The position numbers and the translations under genes were made by a program. The notes beneath the pieces are model-generated. The model was not told the DNA's origin, ran no database searches, and saw only the letters and a list, made by a program, of their open reading frames with translations. Below, piece after piece: positions 5,458 through 25,938 of a stretch of DNA of 56,184 nucleotides. Position 1 is the stretch's first letter. Each line of letters begins with the position of its first letter. Origin of the DNA: Actinomycetota bacterium (lineage in GTDB: Bacteria; Actinomycetota; Acidimicrobiia; Acidimicrobiales; SZUA-35); assembly GCA_039029335.1 (NCBI GenBank), contig JBCCGJ010000003.1, positions 1 to 56,184 of the forward strand. Direction: 5' to 3'.

Positions 5458-5587
5458 GGCCGCACCACACGGTGGACGCCGGGCCGGCGGCAATCGGCTC
5501 CGCCGGCTTCAACCGCTGCGGGCGGTCCTTGCCGTCGCCTGTCAAAAGCCCCTGCGCTCCCGGTCGACGTTGGCTACGGTTGCTGAC

Positions 5588-8288: not shown

Positions 8289-8471
8289 GAGCCCAAACGT
8301 ATGCCGTTGATCCCGTGCGGACCAGGTCTGTCGGACCTAATTCCGGCGGCCGCGGACCTTCCTCACGCTCGATTTTGGGTCTTTTTGCTCAATAACCAAT
8401 GCGCGTCCGCACTCGTTCGAGACCGGGTAAGCGCAGTTGCGTCCCCTCGTCCCCCTGGAGTGTCCGTCGCC

Positions 8472-8699
8472 ATGTTGACATCGGTACAGATCGCGGGTCT
8501 GGTTGCCTTCAACCTCCTGTTACTGATTCTCCTTTTTGTTGCGTTCCGGCTGATCGGGTTCGGCGAGGACCGCCGGGAACGTTCCCGACGGAACATCACC
8601 TCCCCGGAGGAGCTGTTCAGCTTCGACAGCTGGTCGGAAACCGAGCAGCCGCGGCGGCCGATGGGCGGCCCCGGTCGGTCCGGCGGCAACGGCCGGTAG
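8472..8699 (+). CDS. Small single-pass membrane protein (75 aa)
   Basis: MLTSVQIAGLVAFNLLLLILLFVAFRLIG hydrophobic N-terminus, GGAG upstream, stop 6 nt before asnB. Confidence 0.6.
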   Translation: MLTSVQIAGLVAFNLLLLILLFVAFRLIGFGEDRRERSRRNITSPEELFSFDSWSETEQPRRPMGGPGRSGGNGR

Positions 8700-8705
8700 C
8701 AGTCA

Positions 8706-10595
8706 ATGTGCGGTATCGCCGGCGAACATCGCCGGGACGGTGGCGCGGTCGACGCCGACCTCCTGTCGGCCATGGCCGACTCGATGATCCACCGCGGGCC
8801 GGATTCTGCGGGGTATCTCCTGCGACCCGGGGTCGGCTTCGGGTTCCGTCGCCTGTCGATCATCGACCTCGACGGCGGTGACCAACCGCTCTGGAACGAG
8901 GCCGAGACCGTGTTCGTCCAGGGCAACGGTGAGATCTACAACTACCGGGAGCTCCGGGCGGAGCTGATCGGGCTCGGCTGCCGGTTCAAAACCAACTCGG
9001 ACATCGAAGTGGTCGTACACGGATTCGACCGCTGGGGCCTCGACATCCTCGACCGGCTGAACGGCATCTTCGCCCTGGCCATCTGGGACGAGACGGAAAG
9101 ACGGTTGATCCTGGTCCGGGACCACCACGGGGTGAAGCCGCTCTACTACCGGGATGCCGGCCGTCGTTTGACGTTCGGATCCGAGATGCGGGCCATTCAC
9201 GTCGACCGGTCGGCCCCGATGGACATCGACCAGGACGGCCTTCGGCTCCTCCTTCACTTCGGCTACATCCCGTCGCCCCACACCCTGGTCGACGGGGTCA
9301 AGAAGCTGGCGCCCGGGCATCTGCTGATCTCCGACGCCGACGGCAGCACGGTGCGGCGCTACTGGAACCCCGTTCCCGTCACCGACACCGACATCTCGGC
9401 AGGCGACGCCGCCGACCGATACGCCGAGCTGGTGAGCGCCGCGGTCGAGCGGCAGCTGGTCAGCGACGTCCCGGTCGGGTTGCTGCTCTCCGGAGGGGTC
9501 GACTCCTCCATGGTGTTGGCCAAGGTCCGGGAGGCGTCCGCCGAGCCGCTGCAGACCTTCACCGTCGGGTTCGGATCGGACTTCGAACACGACGAGGCCG
9601 AGCATGCGGCCGAGACCGCTCGGCTGTTCGGCACCGATCACCATCAGATCGATCTGGACCTCGGCTCGTTCGAGGACATTCTGGCCAAGACGCTGTGGCA
9701 CCTTGAGGAGCCGGTTCTGTCCCAGAGCACGTTTGCGTACCAGCTGCTCACCGAGGAGGTCGGCAAGCACGTCAAGGTTGTCCTGGCCGGACAGGGGGCG
9801 GACGAACTGTGGGCCGGCTACCGGCGCTACGTCGGCGAGTTGTACGGCGGTGGCGCCCGCCGGCTGCTCGGTTCGTCTGCGGTACGGAGTCTCGGCGAAC
9901 GGGTGCCGGCGCTCGGCTCGGTGCGGCGGGCCAGCGCGTCGCTCGGGCTTGCCGATCCCGTCGACCGGTTCGCCGCAATCCACCAGGTGTTCGACCCCGC
10001 AGACATCGCCGCTGCGGCCCGGGGTGGGCTGACCGAGGCGACCGCAACCGCCCAGGACGTGATCCGCTACTGGCAGGAACCGGTCAACCACCTCGACCCG
10101 CTGAATCAGCTTCTTTATGTCGACACCCGGGTCTCGCTGGCCGACGATCTCCTGCTCTACGGCGACAAGCTCTCCATGTCCAACTCGGTCGAGGCCCGGG
10201 TACCTCTGCTGGACATCGAGCTGTCCTCGTTCGTTGAGAGCCTTCCCACCCGGCTGAAGCTCAACCCCAGAGGGTCGAAGTACCTCCACAAGAAGGTGGC
10301 GGCCCGCATGCTGCCGAAGCAGGTGATGAAGCGGCCGAAGAAGGGTTTTGCCACCCCGGTGGACGCCTGGTTCGCCACCGAGTTCGCATCCACCATCCAG
10401 CGGTCGGTGCTGCGGGATGACTCCTGGAGTTCCCGCCACCTCGACCGCCGGTTCCTCCAGACCTACCTGGACGACCACGTGTCCGGCAGGCGGAACAACC
10501 GCCGGCAACTCACAACCCTTCTCTCGCTGGAGATCGTCTGCGACCAGATCTTCTCCGGCGTCAGCCCCTCGGAAACCATGGAGTTCGCATCATGA
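8706..10595 (+). CDS. asnB: Asparagine synthase (glutamine-hydrolysing) family amidotransferase, polysaccharide-associated
   Basis: N-terminal MCGIAG, HRGPD, NGEIYN, LLSGGVDSS, GQGADE and EARVPLLD motifs. Confidence 0.93.
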   Translation: MCGIAGEHRRDGGAVDADLLSAMADSMIHRGPDSAGYLLRPGVGFGFRRLSIIDLDGGDQPLWNEAETVFVQGNGEIYNYRELRAELIGLGCRFKTNSDIEVVVHGFDRWGLDILDRLNGIFALAIWDETERRLILVRDHHGVKPLYYRDAGRRLTFGSEMRAIHVDRSAPMDIDQDGLRLLLHFGYIPSPHTLVDGVKKLAPGHLLISDADGSTVRRYWNPVPVTDTDISAGDAADRYAELVSAAVERQLVSDVPVGLLLSGGVDSSMVLAKVREASAEPLQTFTVGFGSDFEHDEAEHAAETARLFGTDHHQIDLDLGSFEDILAKTLWHLEEPVLSQSTFAYQLLTEEVGKHVKVVLAGQGADELWAGYRRYVGELYGGGARRLLGSSAVRSLGERVPALGSVRRASASLGLADPVDRFAAIHQVFDPADIAAAARGGLTEATATAQDVIRYWQEPVNHLDPLNQLLYVDTRVSLADDLLLYGDKLSMSNSVEARVPLLDIELSSFVESLPTRLKLNPRGSKYLHKKVAARMLPKQVMKRPKKGFATPVDAWFATEFASTIQRSVLRDDSWSSRHLDRRFLQTYLDDHVSGRRNNRRQLTTLLSLEIVCDQIFSGVSPSETMEFAS

Positions 10596-11910
10596 ACGTT
10601 GCTGTGTTCGGCCTCGGGTATGTCGGATCGGTCACCGCGGCCTGTCTGGCATCGCTCGGGCACCGGGTCATCGGCGTTGACACCAACGGAACGAAGGTCG
10701 ATCTGATCAACCAGGGTCGAAGCCCGGTTGCGGAGCCCGGCATCGGGGAGATGATCATCGCGGCGACTGACGACGGACTGCTGACGGCAACCCTTGATCC
10801 GACTGAAGCGGTTGCCGGCTCTGACCTTGCGCTGGTGTGCGTCGGCACACCAAGCAGGCCGAACGGGGACATCGACCTGGCGTATTTGGAGAACGTGAGC
10901 CGCAACATCGGCGCGGCGTTGGCCGAGTTGGACAAGCGGGACTACGTGGTGGTCGTCCGGAGCACGGTGGTTCCCGGCACCGCGGACCGTATGTCCGAGG
11001 TCATGGCCGAGGTCCTGGCCGCGAGCGGCGCCGGTGCGCTGAACCCGTCGGTCGCCGTCAACCCGGAGTTCCTCCGCGAGGGGCAGGCCGTTGAGGATTT
11101 CATGGCTCCGCCCCTGGTCATGGTGGGGGCCGACGACGGGGACGTTGCGGCCAAGATCCTGGCGCTCTACGACGGCATCGAGGCCGAGCGGCAGGTCGAG
11201 CCGACCCGGCTGACCGAGATGGTCAAGTACGCCAACAACAGCTGGCACGCGGCCAAGGTCACCTTCGCCAACGAGGTGGGCATCGTCTCCCAGGCCATGG
11301 GGGTCGATGGGGCCAAGGTGATGGAGCTGCTGTGTCGGGACACCAAGCTCAACATCTCACCGGCGTACCTCCGGCCGGGGTTTGCGTTCGGCGGCTCGTG
11401 TCTGCCGAAGGACGTCCGGGCGCTGAACTTCATGGCCAAGGACAACGACATCGCTGTGCCGATGCTGTCCAGCCTCCTCACCAGCAACGAGATTCAGGTG
11501 CAGCGGGTCATCGATCAGCTTGTGGCTCACCCCGGCAAGACCATCGGTGTCATCGGTCTGGCGTTCAAGGCGAACACCTCGACCTCCGGGAGAGCCCGCT
11601 GGTCGAGGTGGTTGAACGGATGATCGGCAAGGGCTTCACCTGTCTGGTCCATGACCGCGACATCACCCATTCGGAGCTGATCGGCGGCAACCGGGACTAC
11701 ATCGAGCGGGAGATCCCCCACCTCGACCGGCACCTGGTCGACGACGTCGAGCAGCTTGTCGCCAAAGCCGATGTGGTGGTCGTCTCCAAGGCTCCGGCCG
11801 AGGTCAGGGCGGCGTTGGCCGACCGGCCGGACGACCAGCTGCTGATCGACCTCGTCGGTCTGGAACCGGAACTCCGGACGGTCGGCCCGTACACGGGGGT
11901 GGCGTGGTGA
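10592..11910 (+). pseudogene. algD: GDP-mannose 6-dehydrogenase (AlgD-like), split by a 1-nt deletion at about 11580 (real or sequencing error)
   Basis: GLGYVG, NPEFLREG and FGGSCLPKD motifs. The conserved GLAFKANT-x-DLRESP is broken as AAC ACC TC GAC CTC CGG GAG; the C-terminal half continues in the 11332-11910 frame and ends GVAW, similar to AlgD GICW. Confidence 0.85.
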
Positions 11911-13157
11911 GCGAACAGGACACAAAACCCCACGCGCTGCTGGTGGTTGAGAACTGCTCGGTCCCGGCCGACCGCCGGGTGTGGAACCAGGCCAGGGCGG
12001 CCCGTGACGGCGGATACGACGTCACGGTCATCTCGCCCGTCGGGATCAAAGCCGGTGATGTTCAACGGCGAGAAACCAGGGACGGGATCAACATCTGTCG
12101 GTTCCCGATGCCGTTCGGCGGCCCCAGGAAGATCGACTTCCTGTTCGAATACGGATGGGCCGTCCTCGTCTGTCACTGGCTGGCCTGGCGGGTGTGGCGC
12201 CGGGAGCGCTTCGACGTGATTCACGTGGCCAATCCGCCTGACATGTTCTTCGGCCTGAAGTGGCTCTTCGGCAGGCGGGGTGCCCGCTTTGTCTTCGATC
12301 AGCACGACCTCGGGCCGGAGACGTACCAGAGCAAGTTCGAGGAGGAGCGGGAGGACGCCTTCTCCAAGCTGCTCGGCTGGCTCGAGCAACGGAGTTACCG
12401 CGCCGCCGATGCGGTGATTGTCACCAACGAGTCCTACCGGGAGCGGGCGATCGGCCGGGGCGGCATGGCCGACGAAGACGTGTTCACCGTTCGCAACAGC
12501 CCGGACCTCGACCTGTTCGCCCCCCGGCCTCCGGTGCCGGAACTCAAAGCGGGTTACTCCCACATGGTGCTGTTCGTCGGCACGATGGGCCACCAGGACG
12601 GCGTCCACATTCTTCTCGACGCTGCGGACCACGTGCGGAACACCGCAGGCCGGGATGACGTGCTGTTTGTGATGGTCGGCACCGGCGACGCGTGGGACCG
12701 GCTGCAGGAACAGCATCGGAAGCTCGATCTCGGTGACGGAGTGCGCTTCACCGGCTTCATCTCGGACGACGACATGTTGGACTACATGGCAACCGCCGAC
12801 GTCGGTGCCGCCCCGGACGTCGAGAGTCCGCTGAACAACATCTCGACGATGATCAAGACGATGGACTACATGGCCATGGGGCTGCCCGTGGTCAGCTTCG
12901 ACCTGACCGAGTCCCGGGTGTCGGCCGGTGACGCCGCACGGTACGCCCCCGAGCACTCCGGTGAGTCCTTCGGCGAGACGATCCTGGCCCTGATCGACGA
13001 CCCCGAGCTCCGGCACAGGATGGGGGAGATCGGTCAGGAGCGGATCGCCGGTCCGCTGTCGTGGAAGAACAGCGCAACCCAGCTGCTGGCGGCCTACCGT
13101 CGAGCGCGGCGCATGACGACCGCGGTGGTCCGTCCGCTGTCGGAGCAGGTCGGTTGA
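11907..13157 (+). CDS. Glycosyltransferase family 4 (WbuB-like)
   Basis: DVIHVANPPD, FDQHDLGPE and KTMDYMAMGLPVV motifs. GTGA overlap with the upstream stop. Confidence 0.9.
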   Translation: MSEQDTKPHALLVVENCSVPADRRVWNQARAARDGGYDVTVISPVGIKAGDVQRRETRDGINICRFPMPFGGPRKIDFLFEYGWAVLVCHWLAWRVWRRERFDVIHVANPPDMFFGLKWLFGRRGARFVFDQHDLGPETYQSKFEEEREDAFSKLLGWLEQRSYRAADAVIVTNESYRERAIGRGGMADEDVFTVRNSPDLDLFAPRPPVPELKAGYSHMVLFVGTMGHQDGVHILLDAADHVRNTAGRDDVLFVMVGTGDAWDRLQEQHRKLDLGDGVRFTGFISDDDMLDYMATADVGAAPDVESPLNNISTMIKTMDYMAMGLPVVSFDLTESRVSAGDAARYAPEHSGESFGETILALIDDPELRHRMGEIGQERIAGPLSWKNSATQLLAAYRRARRMTTAVVRPLSEQVG

Positions 13158-14815
13158 GAGCGATGTGCGCCGTGGCCCTCACCCTGGGAGTGCTGACCGC
13201 CGGTTGCGCCGCCGACCAGGTTGACGCGGTCGACGCGGCACCGGTTGTGACCTCGGTTGTCGAGGAGGCGTCATCGACGGGTATCGGCTCCGACGTCGGG
13301 AGCGGCCAGGCGGTCGATGGGTCGACCAAACCGGACGCCTCGGGGTCCGAGCCCGTCGAGGGTGAAGCCGACGCTGAGGTGCTGACCGAGTTCGTCGCCG
13401 ATGCACACCTCCTTGACGGCTGGTCCAGGGCGGGGACAACTGCGACCGCTGGCGAAACCCGTCTGTCGGTTGCGGTGTACGGTGCGGTGGCCGACGATGA
13501 CACCTCGGACTCCGCTGCGTTCGCCGCTGCGGTCCGCGAGGCGGCGGGAATTGACGGTGCGGTGACGATCAGCGTCGGCGAGGGGACCTACCTGCTGACC
13601 CGGACGCTGGAGTTGACCGACGGCATCACGATCAAGGGGCAGGGCCCGGACACCCGAATCGTGCTGGACCTTGGCGGGCGCGACGCCCCCGGCATACGGG
13701 CGGAGGGCCGGATCGGTGGGAGCTGGATCGCACTGGCCGACGCACCGCGCCGGGGAGACACTACGATCACGGTCGATTCCGGGCTGCAGGTCACTCCCGG
13801 TGATGTCGTTGAGCTCGAGCAGCAGAACGACGAATCGTTCTACCTCCGGGAGGATTGGCGGGTCGACTGGGGCCGGGCGGCGACCGGCGAGATGAACCGC
13901 GTCGTGTCGGTCGACGGCAGGACCGTGACCTTCGAAGCGCCGATCCTCGCCGACTACAACGCGGCGTTGACACCACGCGTCCGGATCATCGACCCCGTGC
14001 GGGAGGTCGGCCTCGAAGACCTCTCGATCTTCCGGGCGGACGACGGATACGGGTCGACCGTGCGGTTCGAGCTGGCCGCGGACGTGTGGCTCGATCGGGT
14101 GACCAGCGAACGCACCACCCGAGCCCACGTCGGGCTGAATCAGACCTACCGGTGTCGGATCTCCGGCTCGACCATCCACGACGCAAACGACTTCGGGGAC
14201 GGCGGACGGGCGTACGGGGTCAGCCTCGCCCGGCACACCACGGGCTGCCTGGTCACCAACAACACCCTCTACGACCTTCGCCACGCGATCATCCTGCAGT
14301 TGGGCGCCAGCGGCAACGTGGTCGCCTTCAACCATGCCCGCGGCTCGGCCGGCTACGAGGACCGCCAACCGAGGGCCGATCTCTCGCTCCACGGGCACCT
14401 CGCCCAGGCCAACCTGTTTGAGGGCAACATCGTCGACCGGGCGGTCTCGTCCGACTGGTGGGGCCCGTCCGGTCCGACAAACACCCTGCACCGGAACTGC
14501 GTGCGGGACCACGTCATCCTGACCAACCGGTCCGACGGTCAGGTTGTCGTCGGCAACGTCATCGGGGACGGCGGACTCCGCATCGACGATGACATCACCG
14601 ACACGGTCGCCGTCGGCAACCACCTGCTGACCGCGGCCGCCGCCAGGGACGGCGGGTTGGAACCGCCACCACCGCTGAGCGGCCCGCCGTCGCTCTGGAG
14701 CGAGAGCGCCCCGGACTTTCTGGACGGGTATGCATGGCCACCAATCGATCCCGCCCGGGATGGATCGGCCTGCAACCTCCCGGCGTCCGGCCGGTCACCA
14801 CTGGGGAACAACTGA
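13154..14815 (+). CDS. Lipoprotein with right-handed beta-helix (pectate lyase/GH28-like) domain
   Basis: Lipobox VLTAG-C, pectate-lyase-3-type motif (VAVYGAVADDDTSDSAAFAAAV...GTYLL), Asn-rich beta-helix repeats. Start at TTG 13154 (overlapping the upstream TGA) or ATG 13163. Confidence 0.75.
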   Translation: MRAMCAVALTLGVLTAGCAADQVDAVDAAPVVTSVVEEASSTGIGSDVGSGQAVDGSTKPDASGSEPVEGEADAEVLTEFVADAHLLDGWSRAGTTATAGETRLSVAVYGAVADDDTSDSAAFAAAVREAAGIDGAVTISVGEGTYLLTRTLELTDGITIKGQGPDTRIVLDLGGRDAPGIRAEGRIGGSWIALADAPRRGDTTITVDSGLQVTPGDVVELEQQNDESFYLREDWRVDWGRAATGEMNRVVSVDGRTVTFEAPILADYNAALTPRVRIIDPVREVGLEDLSIFRADDGYGSTVRFELAADVWLDRVTSERTTRAHVGLNQTYRCRISGSTIHDANDFGDGGRAYGVSLARHTTGCLVTNNTLYDLRHAIILQLGASGNVVAFNHARGSAGYEDRQPRADLSLHGHLAQANLFEGNIVDRAVSSDWWGPSGPTNTLHRNCVRDHVILTNRSDGQVVVGNVIGDGGLRIDDDITDTVAVGNHLLTAAAARDGGLEPPPPLSGPPSLWSESAPDFLDGYAWPPIDPARDGSACNLPASGRSPLGNN

Positions 14816-15912
14816 TGGCGACCGGATCAGACAACTCATCGATCAACGGAGATTCAGGAGAAACAGTGAGCAGTCTTGAGGTAGGTGTTGTCGGAACCGG
14901 CTACTGGGGTATCCGACACGTGCGGGTCCTATCGTCAGTCCCCGGTGTGTCGGTGTCGGTCGTCGATCGTGACGATGGCCGACGGCAGGCGGCGGTTGAC
15001 GCATATCCGGTGAAGCGGGCGGTGTCCGATCTCGGCGAAATCATCGACGACCTCGATGCGCTGATCATCGCAACCCCGCCGACAACCCACTACAGCCTGG
15101 CGAAGGCCGCACTGGAACGTGACATCCACGTCCTGGTCGAGAAACCGATGACCACCGACCTTGACGAGGCGGATGATCTGCTTGCCGAGGCCGCTCGTCG
15201 CAACCTGTGCCTGATGGTCGGCCACACGTTCGAGTTCAACGGGGCGGTCTGGGGCCTGTCCGAGGCCATTCGGGATCCGGCGTTCGGTCGGGTCCGGTAC
15301 ATCAACTCGGCACGGCTGAACCTTGGCCTCTATCAGCCGGACACCGACGTGCTGTGGGACCTCGCACCGCACGACATCTCGATCATCAACTACATCCTGG
15401 ATGCCCAGCCCACGTCGGTGTCCGCCTGGGGTCTGCAGCTCATGGGTGACAAGGCCGACGTTGCCTACCTGTCCATGCGCTACGACCAGCTGGACGTGAG
15501 CGCCAGCATTCACGTCAGCTGGCTCGACCCGATGAAGGTCCGCCGAACCACGGTTGTCGGTGAGAAGTCGATGGTGGTGTACGACGATGTCGCCTCGGAG
15601 GAGCGACTGCGTATTTACGACAAGGGCATCAAACAGGACGGCGGTAGCGACGACCGGGGTTCCGGCCCGCCCCTGTCCTATCGCTATGGCGACATCGTCT
15701 CCCCCTACATCGACTTCCGGGAGCCCCTGCAGGTCGAGATGAACGCCTTCATCAACTCGATCCGCTCCGAGGGCCCGGCGTCCACGAACGGCAGGCGGGG
15801 CCGGGACGTTGTTGCCGTGCTGTGCGCCGCCGAAGAGTCCCAGCGGACCGGGCAGTGGGTGGACGTTCCGCAGTTCGACGATCACCTGGCCGGCGGGGTG
15901 TCCGCAGCATGA
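14815..15912 (+). CDS. Gfo/Idh/MocA family oxidoreductase (WbpB/GnnA-like sugar 3-dehydrogenase)
   Basis: VGVVGTGYWG, HVLVEKP and LWDLAPHDIS motifs. Alternative GTG start at 14866 after AGGAG. Confidence 0.88.
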   Translation: MATGSDNSSINGDSGETVSSLEVGVVGTGYWGIRHVRVLSSVPGVSVSVVDRDDGRRQAAVDAYPVKRAVSDLGEIIDDLDALIIATPPTTHYSLAKAALERDIHVLVEKPMTTDLDEADDLLAEAARRNLCLMVGHTFEFNGAVWGLSEAIRDPAFGRVRYINSARLNLGLYQPDTDVLWDLAPHDISIINYILDAQPTSVSAWGLQLMGDKADVAYLSMRYDQLDVSASIHVSWLDPMKVRRTTVVGEKSMVVYDDVASEERLRIYDKGIKQDGGSDDRGSGPPLSYRYGDIVSPYIDFREPLQVEMNAFINSIRSEGPASTNGRRGRDVVAVLCAAEESQRTGQWVDVPQFDDHLAGGVSAA

Positions 15913-17021: not shown

Positions 17022-18558
17022 GCCGGCACCGTGCGGCGAGCAGGGGGACGGGTCGGGCAGGCAGCCTGGCCCGGTCTCACTGTCGGCCGAGACCGCGGGC
17101 CGTCCTCCGTGGCGGGTGGTGTTCGGGACCCTGATCCTTGGTGTTGTTGCCGGCCTCTTCGGTGCGCAGGGTTCGGTTCTTGCCGAGATGGCAAAGGAGG
17201 AGGTCTGGGTGGCCTCCGGCAGCGTCCAGGTCCGCAACGATCGGATCCAACCGGAATCGGTGAAGGTGGTGCTGGAAAGCCCGGGCTTGTGGAATCCGAT
17301 CGCCGCCCGGGAAGGCATATCTGCCAGGGACTTCCAGGAGGACTACGCGGTTGACGTGTCCGGCGGAACGCAGATCGTCCAGGCCACGTTCGAAGACACG
17401 GACCAGGATCGGGCCCGGCGCATCATCGGCGACGTTCTCGACACGTACGTCGAGAACGCCAGTGCACCGCCGGAGATCCTCCAGACCGAGCTGCTGCAGT
17501 CCCATCTGGAGTCCCTCACCGAGCTGGAGTCGTCGATCGTCGTCAGTCTGAACAACAGCGACGATCTGCCGCGACTGCAGCAGATCGACCTGCAGAACGA
17601 GCTGGTGCGGACAAGGCAGCAGATCACGACGGTCATCTTCCGCCTGGACACCCGGGCGACCGAGCTGGCGGAACGTCGCAGGATCGATCCCGAGGTGGTG
17701 ACCGCACCGTTCATCCTGGAGGAGCCGGTGACCCCCGATCCGCTCAAAGCCGCGGTCTTCGGGTTCACCGTCGGTGGCCTTGTCGCACTGGCCGCCGCAT
17801 ACCTGGTGTTCCACCGGGAGGCCCAGGCTGCCGGGGATGTCAGCCGTTCGCCGGCCGCGGGCAACGGGTCGAGCGGGTTTGCCACAACCGGTGCGACCGG
17901 TGCCGATCGCGGCCGTTCGAGCAGCCGACCGCACAACCGGGGCAACCGACTGAAGCGGACCTTGGACGTGGTGATCGCCGGGCTTGTCCTGATCGTCATC
18001 TCCCCGCTGCTGCTGGTCATCGCTCTGCTGATCAAGTTGACAAGCCGGGGGCCGGTGCTGTTCAAGCAGGACCGGGTCGGGCTCGGCGATCGGCTGTTCA
18101 CGCTCTACAAGTTCCGAACGATGCACGTGGACAACGACGACTCCGAGCATCGGGCGTTTGTCGAGGGGCAGCTGGAGAACGGCGACGCGAACCACACGGA
18201 CGACGGCAGGTTCAAACTGCAGGACTCCCGGGTGACCAGGGTCGGTGGCCCGCTGCGACGGTTGTCCCTTGACGAGCTGCCGCAACTGTTGAACGTGCTC
18301 AGAGGCGACATGTCGCTTGTCGGGCCGCGTCCGGCGTTGCCCTGGGAGGCGTCGCTGTTCGAGGCTCGCTATCGGGGCCGAACGAAGGCCGTTCCCGGCT
18401 GCACCGGACTCTGGCAGGTCTCGGGGCGCAGCCAGGTGTCGGTCAGGCGGATGTTGGAGCTCGACATGGAATACGTCCAGACCAGAAGCACGGCCAAGGA
18501 CCTGGGGATTCTGGCCCGCACCCCCTTGGTCGTGCTCAGAGGAGACGGTGCGCGATGA
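17002..18558 (+). CDS. Fusion: Wzz-like co-polymerase domain plus bacterial (priming) sugar transferase
   Basis: TM-extracellular coiled coil-Pro-rich-TM module, followed by KRTLDV, FKQDRVG, YKFRTM, SLDELPQLLNVLRGDMSLVGPRP and PGCTGLWQVSGR. Confidence 0.85.
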   Translation: MSLMVAEPAPCGEQGDGSGRQPGPVSLSAETAGRPPWRVVFGTLILGVVAGLFGAQGSVLAEMAKEEVWVASGSVQVRNDRIQPESVKVVLESPGLWNPIAAREGISARDFQEDYAVDVSGGTQIVQATFEDTDQDRARRIIGDVLDTYVENASAPPEILQTELLQSHLESLTELESSIVVSLNNSDDLPRLQQIDLQNELVRTRQQITTVIFRLDTRATELAERRRIDPEVVTAPFILEEPVTPDPLKAAVFGFTVGGLVALAAAYLVFHREAQAAGDVSRSPAAGNGSSGFATTGATGADRGRSSSRPHNRGNRLKRTLDVVIAGLVLIVISPLLLVIALLIKLTSRGPVLFKQDRVGLGDRLFTLYKFRTMHVDNDDSEHRAFVEGQLENGDANHTDDGRFKLQDSRVTRVGGPLRRLSLDELPQLLNVLRGDMSLVGPRPALPWEASLFEARYRGRTKAVPGCTGLWQVSGRSQVSVRRMLELDMEYVQTRSTAKDLGILARTPLVVLRGDGAR

Positions 18559-19247
18559 CCGCAACTGGCGGAAAGACCGGTGTTCTTCGAGACGTCAACC
18601 CGATCGTCGACGGCGTCATCGATGTCGGGGTGATCGTGGGGTACCCGTCCGAGCGGGGCAGGCCTGCGCCGCTCAACCTCGGGCCAGGGCCTCGGCTGCG
18701 GACCAACTCCGTCCTCTACGGTGCGTCGACCATCGGCCGGGGTTTCACCACCGGCCACAATGTGGTCATCCGAGAGGAGTGCGAGATCGGCGACGACGTC
18801 TCGGTCTGGACCAACAGCGTCGTCGACTACGGCTGCCGCATCGGTGACCGGGTCAAGATCCACTCCAACTGCTACGTCGCCCAGTTCACCGAAATCGGCG
18901 ACGATGCGTTCCTGGCCCCCGGTGTGAGTATCGCAAACGACCTCTACCCCGGCTCGGAGCAGTCGGCCGCCGTCATGCGGGGTCCGGTAATCGGTGCCGG
19001 GGCGCAGATCGGTGTCGGGGTGACGATTCTGCCGTACGTGGTGATCGGCGAAGGAGCGATGATCGGTTCCGGCGCGGTCGTCACCAAGGACATCCCGGCC
19101 GGAATGGTTGCGGTCGGCAATCCGGCGATCGTGACCAAGGCGGTAAAGGAACTGACCCCCATCGAGGATCGCATCGGAGATCGGCATCGGCCGGGGGAGC
19201 GAGCGATGGATGAGACGGACGGCGCGACCAGCGAGCGAAGGGTGTAA
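18555..19247 (+). CDS. Hexapeptide-repeat N-acetyltransferase (WbpD-like)
   Basis: Left-handed beta-helix repeats (IGDDV, IGDRV, IGAGAQIG, IGEGAMIGSGAVVTKDIP) and VGNPA. Confidence 0.9.
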   Translation: MTATGGKTGVLRDVNPIVDGVIDVGVIVGYPSERGRPAPLNLGPGPRLRTNSVLYGASTIGRGFTTGHNVVIREECEIGDDVSVWTNSVVDYGCRIGDRVKIHSNCYVAQFTEIGDDAFLAPGVSIANDLYPGSEQSAAVMRGPVIGAGAQIGVGVTILPYVVIGEGAMIGSGAVVTKDIPAGMVAVGNPAIVTKAVKELTPIEDRIGDRHRPGERAMDETDGATSERRV

Positions 19248-19249
19248 CT

Positions 19250-20122
19250 GTGGCTACAACAACCACCGGCCGACGGACGAGGCGGGATCGACGACACGGC
19301 AGACCGCCACACGTGGTCCGGCCGACCGGATTCACCCATTTGGACCAGGAACGGCGGGCGACCCCGAGCGGGCGCCAGCTCGTCGGGCTCTGCCTGGTCG
19401 GGCTGGTCCTGGCCGCCATCGGTGCCCAAGTCGGGGGCTTCGGTTCCTACCTCTTCGAGGAGCGCTGGCTGGCCAGAGCGGAGATCCAGTACCGGGGCAC
19501 CGCCTGGACGGAGACCCAGGATGTCGCCATCCGCAGCCGTTCGCTGCTCGGCCCGATCGCGGCGGACGTTGGCGAACCGATCAAGGAGTTCGAGGAGCGG
19601 CTCGAAGCCCGGCTGATCCCCGGAACCCAGATCCTCCGGGTCGACTACACCAGCACGGATCCGGATCTCGCCCGGACCGTCGTGTCCGAGTTGGCCAACC
19701 GGTACATCGACATAACCTCGGAGCTGACGCCGGCCGAGATCCGGGCGACCCTGCTGGACGAGATGGCCGAGATCGAGGCGGAGCTTGCGGTCGAACAGGA
19801 GAAGTTCGACCGGATCGCCACGTCGACGGACATCCGTGACCAACCGGAACAGCAGGCGACTCAGGCGGTGATCAACTCGCTCCGGGCGAGGCTGGATGAC
19901 GTCCAGTCACGGATCCTCGATCACGACATCCAGACCATCGACGAGTCGGAGAACGGCATCCCGATCGTGGTGACCGAACCCTTCGTCTTTGAGGAACAGG
20001 TCTTCCCCCGACCGAAGATCTTCGCCGCCGTCGGCGGGGCGGTCGGCCTTCTGCTGGCGGGCCTCTACGCGGGCTGGTTCTGGAACCGCCTGTCCTGGCG
20101 AGCGGAACGGCGGTCCTCCTAG
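19250..20122 (+). CDS. Wzz-like polysaccharide co-polymerase / chain-length determinant
   Basis: Two TMs flanking a coiled coil. Clearly paralogous to the N-terminal half of 17002-18558 (GTQIL vs GTQIV; VVTEPFVFEEQVFP vs VVTAPFILEEPVTP). Confidence 0.7.
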   Translation: MATTTTGRRTRRDRRHGRPPHVVRPTGFTHLDQERRATPSGRQLVGLCLVGLVLAAIGAQVGGFGSYLFEERWLARAEIQYRGTAWTETQDVAIRSRSLLGPIAADVGEPIKEFEERLEARLIPGTQILRVDYTSTDPDLARTVVSELANRYIDITSELTPAEIRATLLDEMAEIEAELAVEQEKFDRIATSTDIRDQPEQQATQAVINSLRARLDDVQSRILDHDIQTIDESENGIPIVVTEPFVFEEQVFPRPKIFAAVGGAVGLLLAGLYAGWFWNRLSWRAERRSS

Positions 20123-20123
20123 A

Positions 20124-21764
20124 TTGGCCACGGCAGCGCGTTCCGCTTCGACCGTCGTCGGTGATTCGACGACGGCCGCCACGTGGACGTTGTTGTCGCG
20201 CATCACCGGATTCGGTCGGGTACTCCTCATCGGCGCCGTTCTCGGCCCGTCGTACTTCGGCAACCTCTTTCAACTGGCCAACCAGCTGCCGTGGATCGTG
20301 TTCGAGCTGGCCATCGGCGCCCTGCTCGGTGCGCTCCTGGTCCCACCGCTCGTCCGCCACATCGGCGACGGTGACCTGGAGGCCGCCGAGCGCCTGGCCG
20401 GTCAGTTCCTCGGCTTTGTACTCGCCGTCTTCGGTGTCATCACCGTGGTAGTGATGGCCGGGTCGATCCTGATCATCCGCGGTCTTGCCGCACCGATCGC
20501 CGACGACGTGGTCCGGCAGGATTTCATCACGGCCGGCCTGCCGTTGCTGTTGCTGACCGGTCCCCAGCTGATCGGCTACGGCATTGCCGTCACCGGGCAG
20601 GCGGTCCAGCACGCCCTCGGCCACTTCGCGCTACCCGCTGCGGCGTCGATCGCCGAGAACGTCATCGTCATCCTGGCCCTGGCGGCCTTTTCCGTGCGGT
20701 TCGGTACGGGTGTCGAGGTTGGCGATGTGGGACTCGGACACATCCTCCTGCTGGGTGGCGGGTCGAGTCTCGGGGTTGCGGCCCATGCCCTCCTGCAATG
20801 GTGGGGGGTACGTCGGGCCGGACTCCGGTTGGTGCCTCGCCGAGGCTGGTCGACGCCCGAGATGCGGGCGATCATCGGCCAGGCTAGGACCTCGGCCGGT
20901 ACCGCGATCCTCAACGGGCTTCGGATCCTGATCCTGATCATCGCCTCCAACACGGTTGCCGGCGGGGTTGTCGCCTTCCAGCTGGCCATCAACCTGCTCA
21001 ACCTTCCGGTGGCGCTCGGATCGAAGCCGGTCTCCTTTGCGCTGCTGCCCCGGCTCTCGGCCGCAAAGCAGGCGGAGGACCTTCGCTCCTTCGTGGACAC
21101 CTACGCCCGGGGCGTTGGCATGGCGGCGTTCATCTCGGTGCCGGCCGCGGCCGCATCGATCGCGCTCGGCTGGTTCGCCGCCCGCGGTCTGGCGGTGGGG
21201 GAGATGGCCGGCCCGGAGGGTGAGCGCCTGGTGCTGTACGCCCTGGTCGGTATCGCCGGGGCCGTCGTCGGTGAAGGTCTTTTCCAGCTGGCCACCTCGG
21301 CCAGCTACGCCTGTTTCGATGCGGTCGCCCCGCTGCGCAGTCAGGCGCTGCGGGCCGGTCTGACCGCTGCCGGCGCGCTGTGCTGCCTCGCCCTGGTGAA
21401 CGGGCCGGTCATCGTCCTGTGGCTCGGTGTGACGATGAGTGTGGCCGACCTGATCGGCTCCGGTTACCTCCACCGGCGGATCATGACCTTGGCGACATCG
21501 GCCTACAACCTGAACCGCTCGCTCCTCCTGACAACCGCCGCGGCGATCGGAGGGTTTGTGCTCGGTGCGGGGGCGGCAGTGATCGTCCGTTCCGTCAGCG
21601 ATGGACCCCGCAACCAGCTGCTGGTGCTGGCGATGACCGGCGTGATCGCCGCAGGTTCGCTCGGCTGCTTCGCCTTTGTCCGATCCCGATTCGACGGCGA
21701 GCTGCGCGAACTGCTGGAAGAACTCCGCTCGAAGGAGTCGGCCGGCGGATCGGTGACGCCATGA
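20124..21764 (+). CDS. murJ: MurJ/MviN-like (MOP superfamily) flippase
   Basis: TLLSRITGFGR, FQLANQLP and FQLAINLLNLP motifs with about 13-14 hydrophobic helices. In-frame TTG at 20124. Confidence 0.8.
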   Translation: MATAARSASTVVGDSTTAATWTLLSRITGFGRVLLIGAVLGPSYFGNLFQLANQLPWIVFELAIGALLGALLVPPLVRHIGDGDLEAAERLAGQFLGFVLAVFGVITVVVMAGSILIIRGLAAPIADDVVRQDFITAGLPLLLLTGPQLIGYGIAVTGQAVQHALGHFALPAAASIAENVIVILALAAFSVRFGTGVEVGDVGLGHILLLGGGSSLGVAAHALLQWWGVRRAGLRLVPRRGWSTPEMRAIIGQARTSAGTAILNGLRILILIIASNTVAGGVVAFQLAINLLNLPVALGSKPVSFALLPRLSAAKQAEDLRSFVDTYARGVGMAAFISVPAAAASIALGWFAARGLAVGEMAGPEGERLVLYALVGIAGAVVGEGLFQLATSASYACFDAVAPLRSQALRAGLTAAGALCCLALVNGPVIVLWLGVTMSVADLIGSGYLHRRIMTLATSAYNLNRSLLLTTAAAIGGFVLGAGAAVIVRSVSDGPRNQLLVLAMTGVIAAGSLGCFAFVRSRFDGELRELLEELRSKESAGGSVTP

Positions 21765-23833
21765 CCACGATCGACACGCAAACGATCATCGGCGGCCGGA
21801 ACGGCAGGGACGATGCGGTCGTGACCGACATTCGCCAACACCCGGCCGCCCACCTCCGGGACCCGAGCGGCCTGGCCCCGGTTCCGGCGAGCACCATCCC
21901 GGAGTTCATCGATCACGTCCTTGGTTACTTCGTCGAGGTGCCGTCCGCCCGGCGGGTTCAGCTGCTGAAATACCTGCTGCCGGTGGCGGCGCTTGTGGCC
22001 GGTGCCCTGGTGGCCGTCATCGGGCCGGTCATCGGAACGGGATTCATCGGACTGACCATCCTGATCGGTTTGACGGCATTCCGGCCCCACTACTCCGGCT
22101 ACATCATGATCGCCGTGGCGCCTGCGATCGTCGGGTTCGGTCGGGGCCAGATCATCCCGTTGCTCCGCCCGAACGAAGCGCTGCTGTTCCTCCTGTGGGT
22201 TGTCCTCGGTGCCAGGTGGTTGCTGTACTCCCGCCGGGTCTCCGTCCGGTTGAACCGGATGGACCTTGTGGTCATCGGGCTGATCCTCACCGGCCTGGTC
22301 GTCCCGCTCCTGGTCCAGTTCGCCCGCCTCCGGCCGGTCTCGGCCGACGACATCTTTTACGCCTTTGTGCTGGTACGGCTCGGCCTGCTCTACGGCATCA
22401 TCCGCTACACGATCAGAACGCCCGGTGAGGTCCGGACCGCGATCGGACTGAGCCTGACCGTCGCAAGCGGACTCGGTGTGCTCGGTCTCATGGACTCCCT
22501 GAACCTGTTCGACACGGCGGAACGGCTCAATCCGTACTTCCCGAACGCCGGGCCCCTGACCGACGACGGTCGGGGCGCGGCGACGATCGGCAATCCCATC
22601 GGGTTCGGGGTGTACTGCGGGATGAACGCCGGTCTGGCCGTCGCGATGCTCCTCGGACGGGAGCGGCCACGCTCGCTGCTGGCCATCGCCGCGATCTGCT
22701 GCGCTGTTGGTGTGTTCGGGAGCGGCCAGATCGGTCCGTCACTGTCCTTCATCGTCGGGTTGGCCGCCCTCGCCATGTTGACCCGGTCGGTGAAGCAGAT
22801 GGTGCTGTGGTCGCTGCCGATCATCCTTGTCGGCTCGATCGTGATCGCCCCGCTCGCCCAGGAGCGGCTCGCCGGGTTCGAGGGGCCGCCGATCACCGGC
22901 GCTCAGCGGCAGGACATCGCCAACATCGAAGGCCAGGAGGAATCCCGAGCACTGTTCGATGCAAACCCGGGTTCGAGTTGGGACGTCCGCCTGTACAACC
23001 TACGCACCTTCTTCCTGCCGGAGTTCGACGACGACCTGAACCTCTGGCTCGGCGTCTCACCCCAGGCCAGGGTCACATCGCCGAACGAGGGTGAAGACTT
23101 CATCTGGATCGAATCCGGCCACCTCTGGTTGCTGTGGTCCGGCGGTGTTCCGCTGTTCATCATGTTCTTCCTTTTTGTCGGCGTCGGTCTGGTGACGTGT
23201 CGGACCGTGATGCGACGAACGCCGGGGCCGGTCGGCATCTGCGGCGCGGCGGCGTTTGCGTCGCTGATCATTCTGAGCGTGGCCACCACGTTCGACCCCC
23301 ACCTGACGTTGCGGGGGACGTCGGACATCCTGTTCCCGCTACTCGGTCTGGTCATGGTGGGGTTCAATCCGGATCGGATCCGTCCGGTTCGACCGCAGAA
23401 GCCGGTGCCGACGCTGGCGTACACCACCCCCGATCGAAACGTCTTGCGCGCGCCGACGAGCGTCAACGGGGACCGGTTGTTGCCGTCGGGCCTGAACGGA
23501 GGCGAGGCCGAAATCTACGTGGTGTCCGGTGCCTCCGGCCTCCAGCGGTTCACCGACTCTGACTCGCCGATCATGATCGGCAGGGGCAGGGACTGCCAGG
23601 TCAGGATCCCCGATGACTTCGTGTCCCGGGTGCACCTGGTCCTGGCCTGGGACGGCGAGGCGTGGCTGGTGAGCGACCACTCGAAACACGGGACCTTCAA
23701 CCGGGCGGGTGACCGCCTGGACGGAAGTGTCACCCTCGCCGACTACCTGGATCTGGTGGTCGGCGGGAAGAAGGGCAAGCAGGTTGAGGTCGGGCTGGTC
23801 TACGGGCCGAGCATCGAGGGAGAAGACGAATAA
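21761..23833 (+). CDS. Wzy/O-antigen-ligase-like polytopic membrane protein with C-terminal FHA domain
   Basis: About 11-12 TMs, RGAATIGNPIGFG loop, WIESGHLWLLWSGG ligase-like motif. C-terminal FHA signature IMIGRG...FVSRVH...DHSKHGT. ATGA overlap with the murJ-like gene. Confidence 0.78.
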   Translation: MTTIDTQTIIGGRNGRDDAVVTDIRQHPAAHLRDPSGLAPVPASTIPEFIDHVLGYFVEVPSARRVQLLKYLLPVAALVAGALVAVIGPVIGTGFIGLTILIGLTAFRPHYSGYIMIAVAPAIVGFGRGQIIPLLRPNEALLFLLWVVLGARWLLYSRRVSVRLNRMDLVVIGLILTGLVVPLLVQFARLRPVSADDIFYAFVLVRLGLLYGIIRYTIRTPGEVRTAIGLSLTVASGLGVLGLMDSLNLFDTAERLNPYFPNAGPLTDDGRGAATIGNPIGFGVYCGMNAGLAVAMLLGRERPRSLLAIAAICCAVGVFGSGQIGPSLSFIVGLAALAMLTRSVKQMVLWSLPIILVGSIVIAPLAQERLAGFEGPPITGAQRQDIANIEGQEESRALFDANPGSSWDVRLYNLRTFFLPEFDDDLNLWLGVSPQARVTSPNEGEDFIWIESGHLWLLWSGGVPLFIMFFLFVGVGLVTCRTVMRRTPGPVGICGAAAFASLIILSVATTFDPHLTLRGTSDILFPLLGLVMVGFNPDRIRPVRPQKPVPTLAYTTPDRNVLRAPTSVNGDRLLPSGLNGGEAEIYVVSGASGLQRFTDSDSPIMIGRGRDCQVRIPDDFVSRVHLVLAWDGEAWLVSDHSKHGTFNRAGDRLDGSVTLADYLDLVVGGKKGKQVEVGLVYGPSIEGEDE

Positions 23834-23875
23834 TGACAACTGCACGATGGCAACAACGGCCGGGAAGGGAACACG

Positions 23876-24820
23876 ATGGGTGAGTCCGATTTCGACGAGA
23901 CGGCGGCGTCTCGGCAGGAAATGGTCTCCGGGGAGACCGCTCGCGCCGGCCGACGGCTCGAGGAGGCACTGAACCGGGCCAGGACGGACGCCGGGCTCGG
24001 TGAGCTGCTCCAGGCCGTCGAGGGGGTGTACAACTCCCTGCGGATCGACACCGCCTACCTGGCCGAGGCGCTCACCGCCGAGCAGCGGCTCGTTGCGGAC
24101 CTCAAGCGGCGGAACCAGGCAAGCCAGGAGGCCCATGCCAAGGCCGTCACCGAGGCCACGCTGAAGGAACAGAAGGCCGACCGGCTGCACAGCCGGATCC
24201 TGGAACTTGAGTCCGCCCTTGAGGAGGCGTCCCTGCGGGCCGAGGCCGATCGGCTGATGGCACTCAGCGAGCGCGACACCGCAGTGGAGAACCTCAGCAG
24301 CAGGATCCGCTCCCTCGAGGCGGAGAACGGTCGCCTCGCCGACGAGCTGGCGGAGCTGAGACAGAAGGTGCGACCGATCGATGTGGCAACCGAACGCTAT
24401 GCCGACCCGGCCGTCACCCTGCTGGTCGACGGTGATGAGATGGTCATGCGTGGTTGGGCCGGTGTGCCGCTGGGGATCGGTCGGGCTCGGGCGATCTCCT
24501 CGCTCAGTCGGCTGGCCGAGACCAGGGATGCGCCGGTCGAGGTTGTTTTCGGAACCGAGGAAGGCCTGCAGCAGGAGGAGTTGGAGAAGGCCCCGATCCG
24601 GGTCAGGGTCATCTCGAACGGTGTCCCGATGGACACCGCACTCAACACGCTCCGGGACCAGTACGAGGAGCAGACCGAGGTGGCGGTCATCACCGACCAG
24701 CCGGACGTGTCCGGTGCGGTCGGGATGACAAGACTCATCGAGATGCTGGGGATGCCAACGTCAACCGGTGGCGCCGCTGGCGGCGATGGCCGGGTGACAT
24801 CGATCGCCATCAACGGCTGA
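23876..24820 (+). CDS. Coiled-coil protein with degenerate NYN (YacP/Rae1-like) domain
   Basis: Long heptad-rich region, then LLVDGDEM...RARAISSLSRLA...VEVVFG...IRVRVIS...VAVITD, which follows the actinobacterial NYN layout with altered catalytic motifs. Confidence 0.55.
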   Translation: MGESDFDETAASRQEMVSGETARAGRRLEEALNRARTDAGLGELLQAVEGVYNSLRIDTAYLAEALTAEQRLVADLKRRNQASQEAHAKAVTEATLKEQKADRLHSRILELESALEEASLRAEADRLMALSERDTAVENLSSRIRSLEAENGRLADELAELRQKVRPIDVATERYADPAVTLLVDGDEMVMRGWAGVPLGIGRARAISSLSRLAETRDAPVEVVFGTEEGLQQEELEKAPIRVRVISNGVPMDTALNTLRDQYEEQTEVAVITDQPDVSGAVGMTRLIEMLGMPTSTGGAAGGDGRVTSIAING

Positions 24821-24866
24821 GTTGTTGGTTGCCGGCGGTGAACGGTGGAAATTAGTGGTGGAGCGA

Positions 24867-25901
24867 ATGTCGCAGAGGATTGACGTCACGGCGTCGCACG
24901 AGTGGGATGAGGTGGTCGCCGGGTCGGACGGCGAGCTGTTCCTTTCCCGGCGGTGGATCGGCGTGCTCGAAGAGGTCTTTGATCTCAACATGGAGGCGAT
25001 CATCCAGCGGGATGCCGGTGGGCGGATCGTCGGCGCGCTGCCGTTCTGCTGTGTGGACGACGTCCGGAGCTCACGGGTGGCGGTGCTTCCGTTCTCCGAC
25101 TTCGTGACCCCGGTGCTGCATGCTGATGCGGACTGGGACCACGTGATCGATCCCATCCTGCAGCTCGGCAGACCACTGGTGTTCCAGACGACCGGCGGCT
25201 CCCCGGCCGCCACCGACGAACGGTTCGTCCAGGACGGTGAGTCGGTCAGGCACTCCGTCGCGCTCGACGCCGACCTGGACGAGCTCATGAGCCGCTTCTC
25301 CCAGCACCATCGCAGGCTTGTCCGCAAGTCGGCCAAGCACGGTCTCCGGTTCCGCCTTGCCGAGTCGACCGACGAACTGCGGGCGTTCTACGAACTCCAT
25401 CTCGGCGTCAGGAAACACAAGTACGGCATGCTGGCTCAGCCGTATCGTCTCTTCGAGGCACTGTGGGAGGAGTTCCTCACCAAGGGTGCCGGCGGCCTTG
25501 TGCTCGGGTTCGACGGTTCGATGGTGGTCGGCGGTTGCCTGCTCCTCGAGGCGGGGGACACGCTCTACTACAAGTACGCGGCGTCCCACCCGGACTACCG
25601 CGCCCTCGGGGTCAGCCACGGCGCAACGGTGCAGGCGATGGAGCTTGGCCTGCAGCGGGGCCTGGCCAAGCTGGACCTCGGCAGGAGCGACCTCGACCAA
25701 CCGGGTCTGGTGGACTTCAAACGCCGCTTCGGGGCGACGGCGACCGCGCTCCACCGGTACCGGTCGAAGGACCAGCTGTTCCAGGAGGTCTCGGAGATGG
25801 ACCGACTCCTCACCGACCTCACCGGGTTGATGACCCAGTCGACTGTGCCGGACCACATCACCGAACGGGCGGGCGACCGCCTCTACCGCCTCTTCGCGTG
25901 A
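24867..25901 (+). CDS. GNAT family acyltransferase (CelD/BcsL or FemAB-like)
   Basis: LPFSD, RRLVRKSAKHGL, YYKYAAS and LDLGRSDLDQPGLVDFKRRFG motifs. Confidence 0.82.
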   Translation: MSQRIDVTASHEWDEVVAGSDGELFLSRRWIGVLEEVFDLNMEAIIQRDAGGRIVGALPFCCVDDVRSSRVAVLPFSDFVTPVLHADADWDHVIDPILQLGRPLVFQTTGGSPAATDERFVQDGESVRHSVALDADLDELMSRFSQHHRRLVRKSAKHGLRFRLAESTDELRAFYELHLGVRKHKYGMLAQPYRLFEALWEEFLTKGAGGLVLGFDGSMVVGGCLLLEAGDTLYYKYAASHPDYRALGVSHGATVQAMELGLQRGLAKLDLGRSDLDQPGLVDFKRRFGATATALHRYRSKDQLFQEVSEMDRLLTDLTGLMTQSTVPDHITERAGDRLYRLFA

Positions 25902-25938
25902 GCTCCCGGTTGACGGGCCCACACCTCGGCGGGAGGCG

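Follow-up and report, generated by a model that had tools for sequence, protein, structure and literature searches.

The window analysed here is a stretch of 56,184 nt that makes up the whole of contig C3 (JBCCGJ010000003.1, assembly GCA_039029335.1) in a 6.0-Mb, 520-contig metagenome-assembled genome (MAG) of the Acidimicrobiales, 89% complete. It contains 13 solid genes, all on the + strand between 8706 and 25901, which overlap by 1–20 nt or are 1–42 nt apart in a gene model made by open reading frame (ORF) picking guided by third-position GC content (GC3) and by start-codon inspection. Their products include sugar-synthesis enzymes, a GT4 glycosyltransferase, a priming transferase, a MurJ-like flippase, a beta-helix lyase-like lipoprotein, and a Wzy-like membrane protein that ends in an FHA domain. 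We hold with high confidence that this is a surface-polysaccharide cluster of the Wzx/Wzy type and that its clade as a whole has lost the bacterial tyrosine kinase (BY-kinase). A preliminary description of the same DNA had read the genes as such a tightly coupled cluster with all of these components, and this is borne out. It placed the start at 8472 and counted fourteen genes because it included a small ORF (8472–8699, +) of 75 aa with one hydrophobic or transmembrane (TM) helix. This ORF is coding-like in composition (GC1/2/3 of 0.62/0.49/0.82), is unverified as a gene, and has no tblastn match with E < 0.01 in 95 related loci.

Two of the genes carry domains resembling polysaccharide co-polymerases (PCPs, Wzz-like). 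One (17002–18558, +) joins a PCP/Wzz-like domain with two TM helices (residues 1–270) to a small PglC-type phosphoglycosyl transferase (PGT; residues 310–518), the latter matching Bac_transf (PF02397) with 199 bits over residues 318–512. The other (19250–20122, +) encodes a stand-alone PCP of 290 aa, in which two TM helices predicted by hydropathy (44–62 and 257–275) flank a helical region. The window PCP is too divergent to match Pfam Wzz; a profile of this protein and 17 relatives matches only the PCP domain of PCP-BY-kinases, with an hhalign probability of 97.7% (E 1.6e-12). Because the N-terminal 270 residues of the PGT protein are paralogous to the stand-alone PCP (29% identity, E 3e-24), the second Wzz-like paralogue claimed in the preliminary description is real, but it is a domain of the priming enzyme rather than a gene of its own. 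The PCP–PGT fusion occurs in 10 related loci in addition to the window, and the two parts are encoded by adjacent genes in 5.

The flippase gene (20124–21764, +; 546 aa) belongs to the MurJ family of the MOP superfamily (PF03023, 106.5 bits; cut-off 27.4). Against TIGR01695 it scores 117 bits, below the cut-off of 235.55, and since a separate MurJ copy that passes this cut-off sits on contig C55, the cluster protein is regarded as a paralogue. The next gene (21761–23833, +) encodes the 690-aa Wzy-like protein, which consists of a TM part (residues ~60–545), a linker of ~55 aa, and the FHA domain (residues ~595–680). Its AlphaFold2 (AF2) model is confident over residues 40–540, with a predicted local distance difference test (pLDDT) value of ~90 in the TM part and below 50 in the FHA part. 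In structure comparison the model matches WaaL best (7tpg; Foldseek E 4e-5, VIA Z 20.7, root-mean-square deviation (rmsd) 5.4, 366 residues aligned), ahead of FtsW (VIA Z 14.9) and RodA (12.8), so that by its model the protein has the WaaL/Wzy/SEDS fold. Prediction of a complex between its TM domain (60–545) and the MurJ-like protein (15–525), with alignments for both, gave a score of 0.00 against a mark of 0.32, which is no verdict.

Downstream of Wzy, a gene at 23876–24820 (+) encodes a 314-aa protein that has no Pfam or NCBIfam match and for which a profile search of PDB sequences gave only coiled-coil look-alikes. Its AF2 model (pLDDT 79.9) consists of a long helix (residues 39–164) and an alpha/beta NYN domain (residues 181–291). 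The NYN domain matches Rae1/YacP (5mq8_A) with Foldseek E 3e-4 and probability 1.00, and with VIA Z 14.9 and rmsd 1.9 over 113 aligned residues, the next match having Z 8.2; the coiled-coil protein with an NYN fold that had been proposed is thus recovered. Across 17 family members, D/E185-G186, W194, R203, R242, and R244 vary little or not at all. Because the later acidic positions vary across these members, the designation pseudo-NYN, meaning catalytically degenerate, is plausible but unproven from the alignment. With Rae1 of B. subtilis the protein shares the alpha/beta fold, its first strand ending in the conserved acidic-Gly pair, but it differs in the fused 125-residue helix, in the variable other acidic positions, in having no sequence-level match to any NYN family, and in a context of polysaccharide synthesis, not ribosome-linked mRNA decay. 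The last gene of the cluster (24822–25901, +), unnamed in the preliminary description, encodes a FemAB/GNAT-like transferase (Acetyltransf_6 55 bits, FemAB 34 bits).

Relatives of the cluster were collected in two ways. When a 5.8-billion-protein set was searched with the Wzy TM domain, 178 relatives with E ≤ 0.001 were found among 8000 candidates scored. Among the 120 relatives listed, an FHA domain is present in 4 (73–99% identical), a fusion to MurJ in 21, a fusion to Bac_transf in 1, and a Pfam Wzy_C match in 1. When 185,579 species genomes were scanned, 236 cassette relatives were found, and the best 80 of these 236 loci were kept for locus counts. These loci span Acidimicrobiales, Solirubrobacterales, Streptosporangiaceae, Nocardioides, Kribbella, Actinoplanes, Geodermatophilus, Chloroflexota, Dormibacterota, and others. 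A metagenome scan with the whole Wzy-FHA protein returned 3 weak, irrelevant loci.

By tblastn, MurJ is matched in 67/80 loci, PGT in 63, the acetyltransferase in 62, DegT in 61, Gfo in 58, and GT4 in 49. Lower counts were obtained for PCP (26/80), the PCP-like N-terminus of the PGT protein (25), the FemAB-like gene (23), the lyase-like lipoprotein (10), asnB (4), ugd (4), and sigma (3). The coiled-coil protein is matched in 9/80 loci by tblastn and in 10/80 by a hidden Markov model (HMM), all ten being among the 26 nearest, kinase-less loci (L016–L041). PCP is present wherever enough of the locus was fetched, with or without a kinase. From these sequence comparisons, gfo-degT-acetyltransferase-PGT-MurJ-Wzy is a core cassette with a wide distribution in Actinomycetota.

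The preliminary description had stated that no BY-kinase and no phosphatase accompany the cluster, and both statements hold. There is no TIGR01007 match on contig C3, where the PCP-BY-kinase HMM matches only the PCP parts, and Pfam finds no LMW-PTP or PHP phosphatase among 42 window ORFs, unselected small ORFs not having been scanned. The same is true of the nearest relatives. A kinase-domain HMM matches 0/26 of the nearest loci versus 42/54 of the farther ones, in which the match mostly begins no more than ~1.5 kb downstream of Wzy. Of the 12 farther loci that lack a kinase, many are short (2.7–8.7 kb). The expectation that homologous clusters do without a BY-kinase therefore agrees with the near relatives, yet the more distant ones routinely have one beside Wzy, which is half of what the preliminary description named as grounds for rejecting its hypothesis. 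In 8/8 sampled far loci the kinase proteins match tyrosine-autokinase families best, three of them above the TIGR01007 cut-off.

Whether the two kinds of locus are separated by descent can be seen in a tree of the Wzy domain, which was built so that its groups were not defined by the kinase trait being counted. The tree has 66 rows, after removal of 8 loci with a stop in the matched stretch and 7 with incomplete coverage. A branch with support of 100 in the SH-like approximate likelihood-ratio test (SH-aLRT) separates 22 rows, the window included, none of which has a BY-kinase, from 44 rows, 36 of which have one. Other Acidimicrobiales (L042, L069, L094) fall on the kinase side. Because of this 0/22 versus 36/44 split at full support, kinase loss is taken to be an inherited trait of one Acidimicrobiales clade. 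By sequence, the cluster represents the kinase-less Acidimicrobiales branch of an Actinomycetota cassette whose other branch usually has a PCP-BY-kinase in the fetched locus, mostly just after Wzy.

The components recur as fused proteins in the relatives. A MurJ–Wzy fusion is found in 21/120 listed homologues and in 10/50 loci with a near-full MurJ match (L023, L047, L054, L063, L072–L074, L076, L081, L091; also P0027 and P0065). These fusions are 990–1170 aa long, and public records label them simply ‘MurJ’. In L035–L038 and P0049, Wzy is fused to PGT instead (762–787 aa), and tblastn finds no MurJ match anywhere in these loci. In Nocardioides (L059, 9994–12705; L062, 9670–12768; L067), the Wzy frame continues stop-free through a PCP into a P-loop domain that weakly resembles BY-kinases, and the resulting proteins of ~900–1030 aa score only 30–62 bits against TIGR01007. 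Because such pairwise fusions recur, we argue that the priming enzyme, flippase, polymerase, co-polymerase, and kinase act as one membrane machine. The fusions also show that the C-terminus of Wzy is the attachment site of a cytoplasmic regulatory module, which is the position that FHA holds here. Separately, the genome that contains the window has a second, paralogous cassette (L117, contig C21, 20000–34048) with a FemAB-like gene, PGT, and a fused MurJ–Wzy in an open frame of 1041 aa; this cassette reaches the contig end.

The FHA domain claimed for the polymerase-like protein is found with 39.1 bits (PF00498; cut-off 20.7), and an orthologue in another genome of the family, G051, scores 36 bits. 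Among solved FHA domains, that of M. tuberculosis FhaA is closest to it (E 3.5e-8). Two motifs that contact phosphothreonine, GR and SxxH, align to those of FhaA and are kept in the orthologues P0005–P0008 and in G051. Among P0005–P0008, FHA identity is 67–81%, compared with 73–78% for the whole protein. The fusion is present in four other protein clusters among the 120 listed relatives of the protein search, and a word-based search with residues 560–690 returned the same four only.

Transcribed divergently from the cluster is a gene for an extracytoplasmic function (ECF)-like sigma factor of 419 aa (7029–8288, −). It matches TIGR02937 over residues 40–180 (47.3 bits; cut-off 42.9) and Sigma70_r4 (39.3 bits); Pfam finds only region 4 in it, and a weak region 2 in relatives. 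Region 4 passes directly into a TM helix predicted by hydropathy (residues 182–200), which is followed by an acidic, Pro-rich tail of ~220 aa. A divergent membrane-bound ECF factor had been counted among the parts of the system, and it is there, although its gene lies outside the interval that the preliminary description gave. L019 (14626–15960) and L024 (14480–15805) encode homologues that are likewise anchored directly by a TM helix and have a long outer tail rich in Thr and Pro, the gene lying downstream of the FemAB-like gene in both; the sigma of L021 is soluble. As for an ECF promoter motif, no 8–10-mers are shared between 8289–8705 of the window and the regulatory regions of four relatives. 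The divergent, membrane-anchored factor would probably provide transcriptional control.

Two genes upstream of sigma, a 302-aa protein (5339–6247, +) has an OLD-like TOPRIM domain (34 bits) and may be the remnant of a defence-type nuclease. Beyond the cluster, an 856-aa protein (27172–29742, −) joins an amino-acid-permease domain to a C-terminal domain of the SLC12 type, an arrangement similar to that of cation-chloride cotransporters.

The remaining genes of the cluster concern the sugars. The Gfo/Idh/MocA protein (14815–15912, +; GFO_IDH_MocA 91 bits) resembles nucleotide-sugar 3-dehydrogenases, with UDP-GlcNAc 3-dehydrogenase as best NCBIfam family (162 bits; cut-off 450) and 7bvj as best PDB match. 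The DegT-family C3 aminotransferase (15909–17021, +; PF01041, 367 bits) has 7b0d, annotated as glutamine--scyllo-inositol transaminase, as top solved chain (E 1.2e-92); QdtB (E 6e-92) and WbpE (E 2e-76) are among the nearest solved chains of named enzymes. The hexapeptide-repeat sugar N-acetyltransferase (18555–19247, +; Hexapep 90.7 bits) is nearest to QdtC (E 1.5e-33), with a match to the WlbB-type 3mqg too. This trio could convert a UDP-HexNAc to its 3-acetamido derivative (GlcNAc3NAc type) by C3 oxidation, amination, and N-acetylation.

At the start of the cluster, an AsnB-type Gln-dependent amidotransferase (8706–10595, +; Asn_synthase 272 bits, GATase_7 143 bits) precedes a UDP-sugar 6-dehydrogenase-like gene (ugd; 10592–11910, +). 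The Pfam domains of the latter lie in two frames owing to a 1-nt frameshift near 11579–11581, the N-terminal and central domains in 10592–11623 and the UDP-binding domain in 11581–11907 (PF03720, 26.8 bits, E 7e-6); the frameshift is either a MAG assembly error or the mark of a pseudogene. Ugd and the AsnB-like enzyme may oxidise the 3-acetamido derivative and amidate the carboxyl of the resulting uronic acid. The only non-priming glycosyltransferase of the cluster is GT4 (11904–13157, +; Glyco_trans_1_4 85.8 bits, Glyco_trans_4_4 74.3 bits). The right-handed beta-helix, pectate-lyase-like protein (13154–14815, +; PF12708 29.1 bits, cut-off 27; Beta_helix 20 bits, below cut-off) has an N-terminal signal with an LTAGC lipobox.

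Membership in the XrtA/PEP-CTERM type of exopolysaccharide (EPS) cluster was considered and rejected, as the best NCBIfam matches are far below their cut-offs, exosortase itself not having been searched for. The AsnB-like protein scores 446 bits against TIGR03108 (cut-off 817) and the FemAB-like protein 64 bits against TIGR03019 (260); the scores for TIGR03017 and TIGR03013 are 22 (423) and 142 (393).

Taken together, assembly could proceed as follows. The PGT domain would prime undecaprenyl phosphate, and the single GT4 would complete a disaccharide unit, which is the simplest repeat because there is one PGT and one GT4. The MurJ-family paralogue would flip the lipid-linked unit, the Wzy-like protein would polymerise the units, chain length would be set by the two kinase-less PCPs, and the beta-helix lipoprotein might trim or release the polymer. 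In the narrow lineage of the window, the polymerase has gained a cytoplasmic FHA domain. This domain would most likely dock on a phosphothreonine made by one of the Hanks kinases of the genome, whether located in that kinase, in the Thr-rich linker, or in a partner protein, and docking would couple polymerisation to Ser/Thr signalling. The genome has at least 23 Hanks kinases above the Pfam cut-off, none of them on C3.

Precedents make such control by Ser/Thr phosphorylation plausible by analogy. In M. tuberculosis, according to a preprint, FhaA binds the phosphorylated MviN flippase (bioRxiv 10.1101/2024.08.13.607006), and the FHA-bearing transporter Rv1747 is reported to be regulated by PknF (PMC3138270, PMC8339232). 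In these actinobacterial cases, as in the window, FHA is on or acts on a machine for lipid-linked envelope precursors, and Rv1747 is reported likewise to combine a membrane machine, FHA, and an unstructured Thr-bearing linker. The window differs in the carrier of FHA, which is joined to a Wzy-like protein rather than being part of a soluble adaptor or an ATP-binding cassette transporter. It differs further in that the adjacent MurJ paralogue (546 aa) has no pseudokinase domain, no kinase gene is linked, and an Asn of the FHA fold is replaced by His.

The arrangement can also be compared with the known Wzy pathways. With O-antigen and enterobacterial common antigen (ECA) systems (PCP-1, Wzz/WzzE) it shares a PGT, a MOP-family flippase, a protein of the WaaL/Wzy fold as polymerase (a putative one here), and a two-TM, kinase-less co-polymerase. 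In contrast to those systems, the host is actinobacterial, with no outer membrane or lipopolysaccharide, the flippase is of the MurJ and not the Wzx family, the PCPs form a pair of paralogues, of which one is part of the PGT protein and both are too divergent for Pfam Wzz, and the polymerase has FHA. With BY-kinase capsule and EPS systems (Wzc; CpsC/CpsD; PCP-2) the connection is that the sister branch has a PCP-BY-kinase next to Wzy and that the window PCPs are homologous to the PCP domain of that protein, but the window has neither a P-loop kinase domain nor a phosphatase. The place downstream of Wzy that the kinase gene takes in most far loci is occupied in the window by the FHA tail, followed by the coiled-coil/NYN gene.

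The reading that we prefer, an operon-like cluster of the Wzx/Wzy type that makes a cell-surface heteropolysaccharide, lacks a kinase, and has its polymerase tied to Ser/Thr signalling through FHA, appears moderately probable; its narrower component, that FHA is a working phospho-reader regulating polymerisation, is a tentative proposal by analogy that we would put somewhat below even. A number of observations count against them. FHA is absent from 80/80 related loci by tblastn. The family of the window in GTDB comprises 88 genomes. The TM domain has close orthologues (E < 1e-100) in 20 of them, the window's included, and the FHA tail is in the same frame in only two of the 88, G000 and G051. 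The missing FHA in nearly all relatives means that the system works without it there, and the earlier view of FHA as a defining part of the system has to be given up. From these comparisons, the FHA fusion is a genuine one that a small lineage has conserved and that the system in general can do without. In FHA domains, the Asn of the Asn-Gly turn holds the peptide backbone and is described as near-universal; at the position of this Asn in FhaA, 6/6 sequences (P0001, P0005–P0008, G051) have His. The 42 ORFs of the window that were scanned with Pfam include neither a Ser/Thr kinase nor a phosphatase, and no phosphothreonine partner was identified there. Co-transcription of 8706–25901 is deduced from gene spacing only, a search for RNA sequencing runs over 19250–25901 having listed none and scans of 8200–26100 being uninformative (0 promoter-like sites versus 1.2 in shuffles; 11 terminator-like sites versus 7.1 ± 2.7). 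The frameshift in ugd means that the pathway may be impaired, or else the assembly is wrong, and the sugar identities suggested above follow from family resemblance, with all NCBIfam equivalog scores below their cut-offs. Finally, kinase-less Wzy/Wzz systems such as O-antigen and ECA are textbook in Gram-negative bacteria, which weakens the regulatory reading.

An alternative is that the cluster is a kinase-less Wzy/PCP system of the ordinary kind, working as O-antigen or ECA assembly does with Wzz, in which FHA is a recent, lineage-specific degenerate or scaffold add-on that exerts no phospho-control and any regulation is transcriptional, through the ECF-like sigma factor. The lack of FHA in 80/80 loci and in 86/88 family genomes and the His in place of the conserved Asn point this way, as does the comparison of G051 with the window, in which the FHA tail is 44% identical and the TM domain 77%, suggesting relaxed constraint. 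In 3 related loci, moreover, a sigma-like gene is again found next to the cluster. On the other hand, FHA is above the Pfam cut-off in both lineages with GR and SxxH kept, and its conservation among P0005–P0008 equals that of the other parts of the protein. We consider this alternative a substantial one, though less likely than the reading that we prefer. A different alternative is that tyrosine-kinase control is kept in trans. The absence of BY-kinases holds for contig C3 and not for the genome, which has 12 TIGR01007 matches, four of them above the cut-off (contigs C142, C174, C168, C203) in frames that also match Wzz, and one of these four distant PCP-BY-kinases could act in trans as partner of the cluster. 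But two PCPs, both without a kinase domain, are already encoded in the cluster itself, the kinase-less state is inherited clade-wide (0/22 rows), and BY-kinases are usually located in their own clusters, which makes control in trans very improbable.

It should also be asked whether the WaaL-fold protein is a polymerase at all, as it could be a ligase or O-oligosaccharyltransferase that moves the lipid-linked glycan to protein, lipid, or wall. The fold leaves polymerase versus ligase unsettled, the top match of the model being the ligase WaaL, and there is no Pfam Wzy_C match on the window protein, a single relative (P0048) carrying PF04932. The top match is not discriminating because WaaL, Wzy, and SEDS proteins share one fold. 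PCPs partner with polymerases, and a PCP accompanies the Wzy-like protein wherever enough of the locus was fetched; nor does the cluster contain another polymerase candidate by Pfam or NCBIfam. A ligase is accordingly improbable in our estimate.

Returning to the kinase-less, FHA-linked cluster, a more far-reaching version of it can be formulated, in which, in one Acidimicrobiales clade, the BY-kinase clamp is replaced by kinase-less PCPs (one of them fused to the priming enzyme), a coiled-coil degenerate-NYN scaffold, and the lineage-specific FHA, with Hanks kinases controlling chain synthesis. We regard this version as unlikely, but if true, it would be a regulatory logic undescribed for Wzy pathways. 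A literature search covering few subscription journals found no description of an FHA fusion to Wzy or an O-antigen ligase, of PCP–PGT fusions, or of the MurJ/Wzy actinobacterial cassette, and the one paper it gave in which FHA and Wzy occur together concerns VanZ fusions. Accordingly, the type of pathway is known, and what would be new is the clade-wide replacement of the BY-kinase, the PCP fused to the priming enzyme, the coiled-coil NYN-like partner, and the rare FHA-tagged polymerase.

Surface-polysaccharide assembly is poorly charted in Actinomycetota outside the mycobacteria. The window and its relatives define a widespread cassette, whose varied pairwise fusions are genomic evidence for one membrane machine, and the kinase-less branch with its rare FHA polymerase amounts to a natural experiment on the control of chain synthesis without a BY-kinase. 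If FHA is not a phospho-reader, the cluster would be an actinobacterial counterpart of kinase-less O-antigen-type assembly. If it is a working one, Hanks-kinase signalling would be linked directly to a Wzy-type polymerase.

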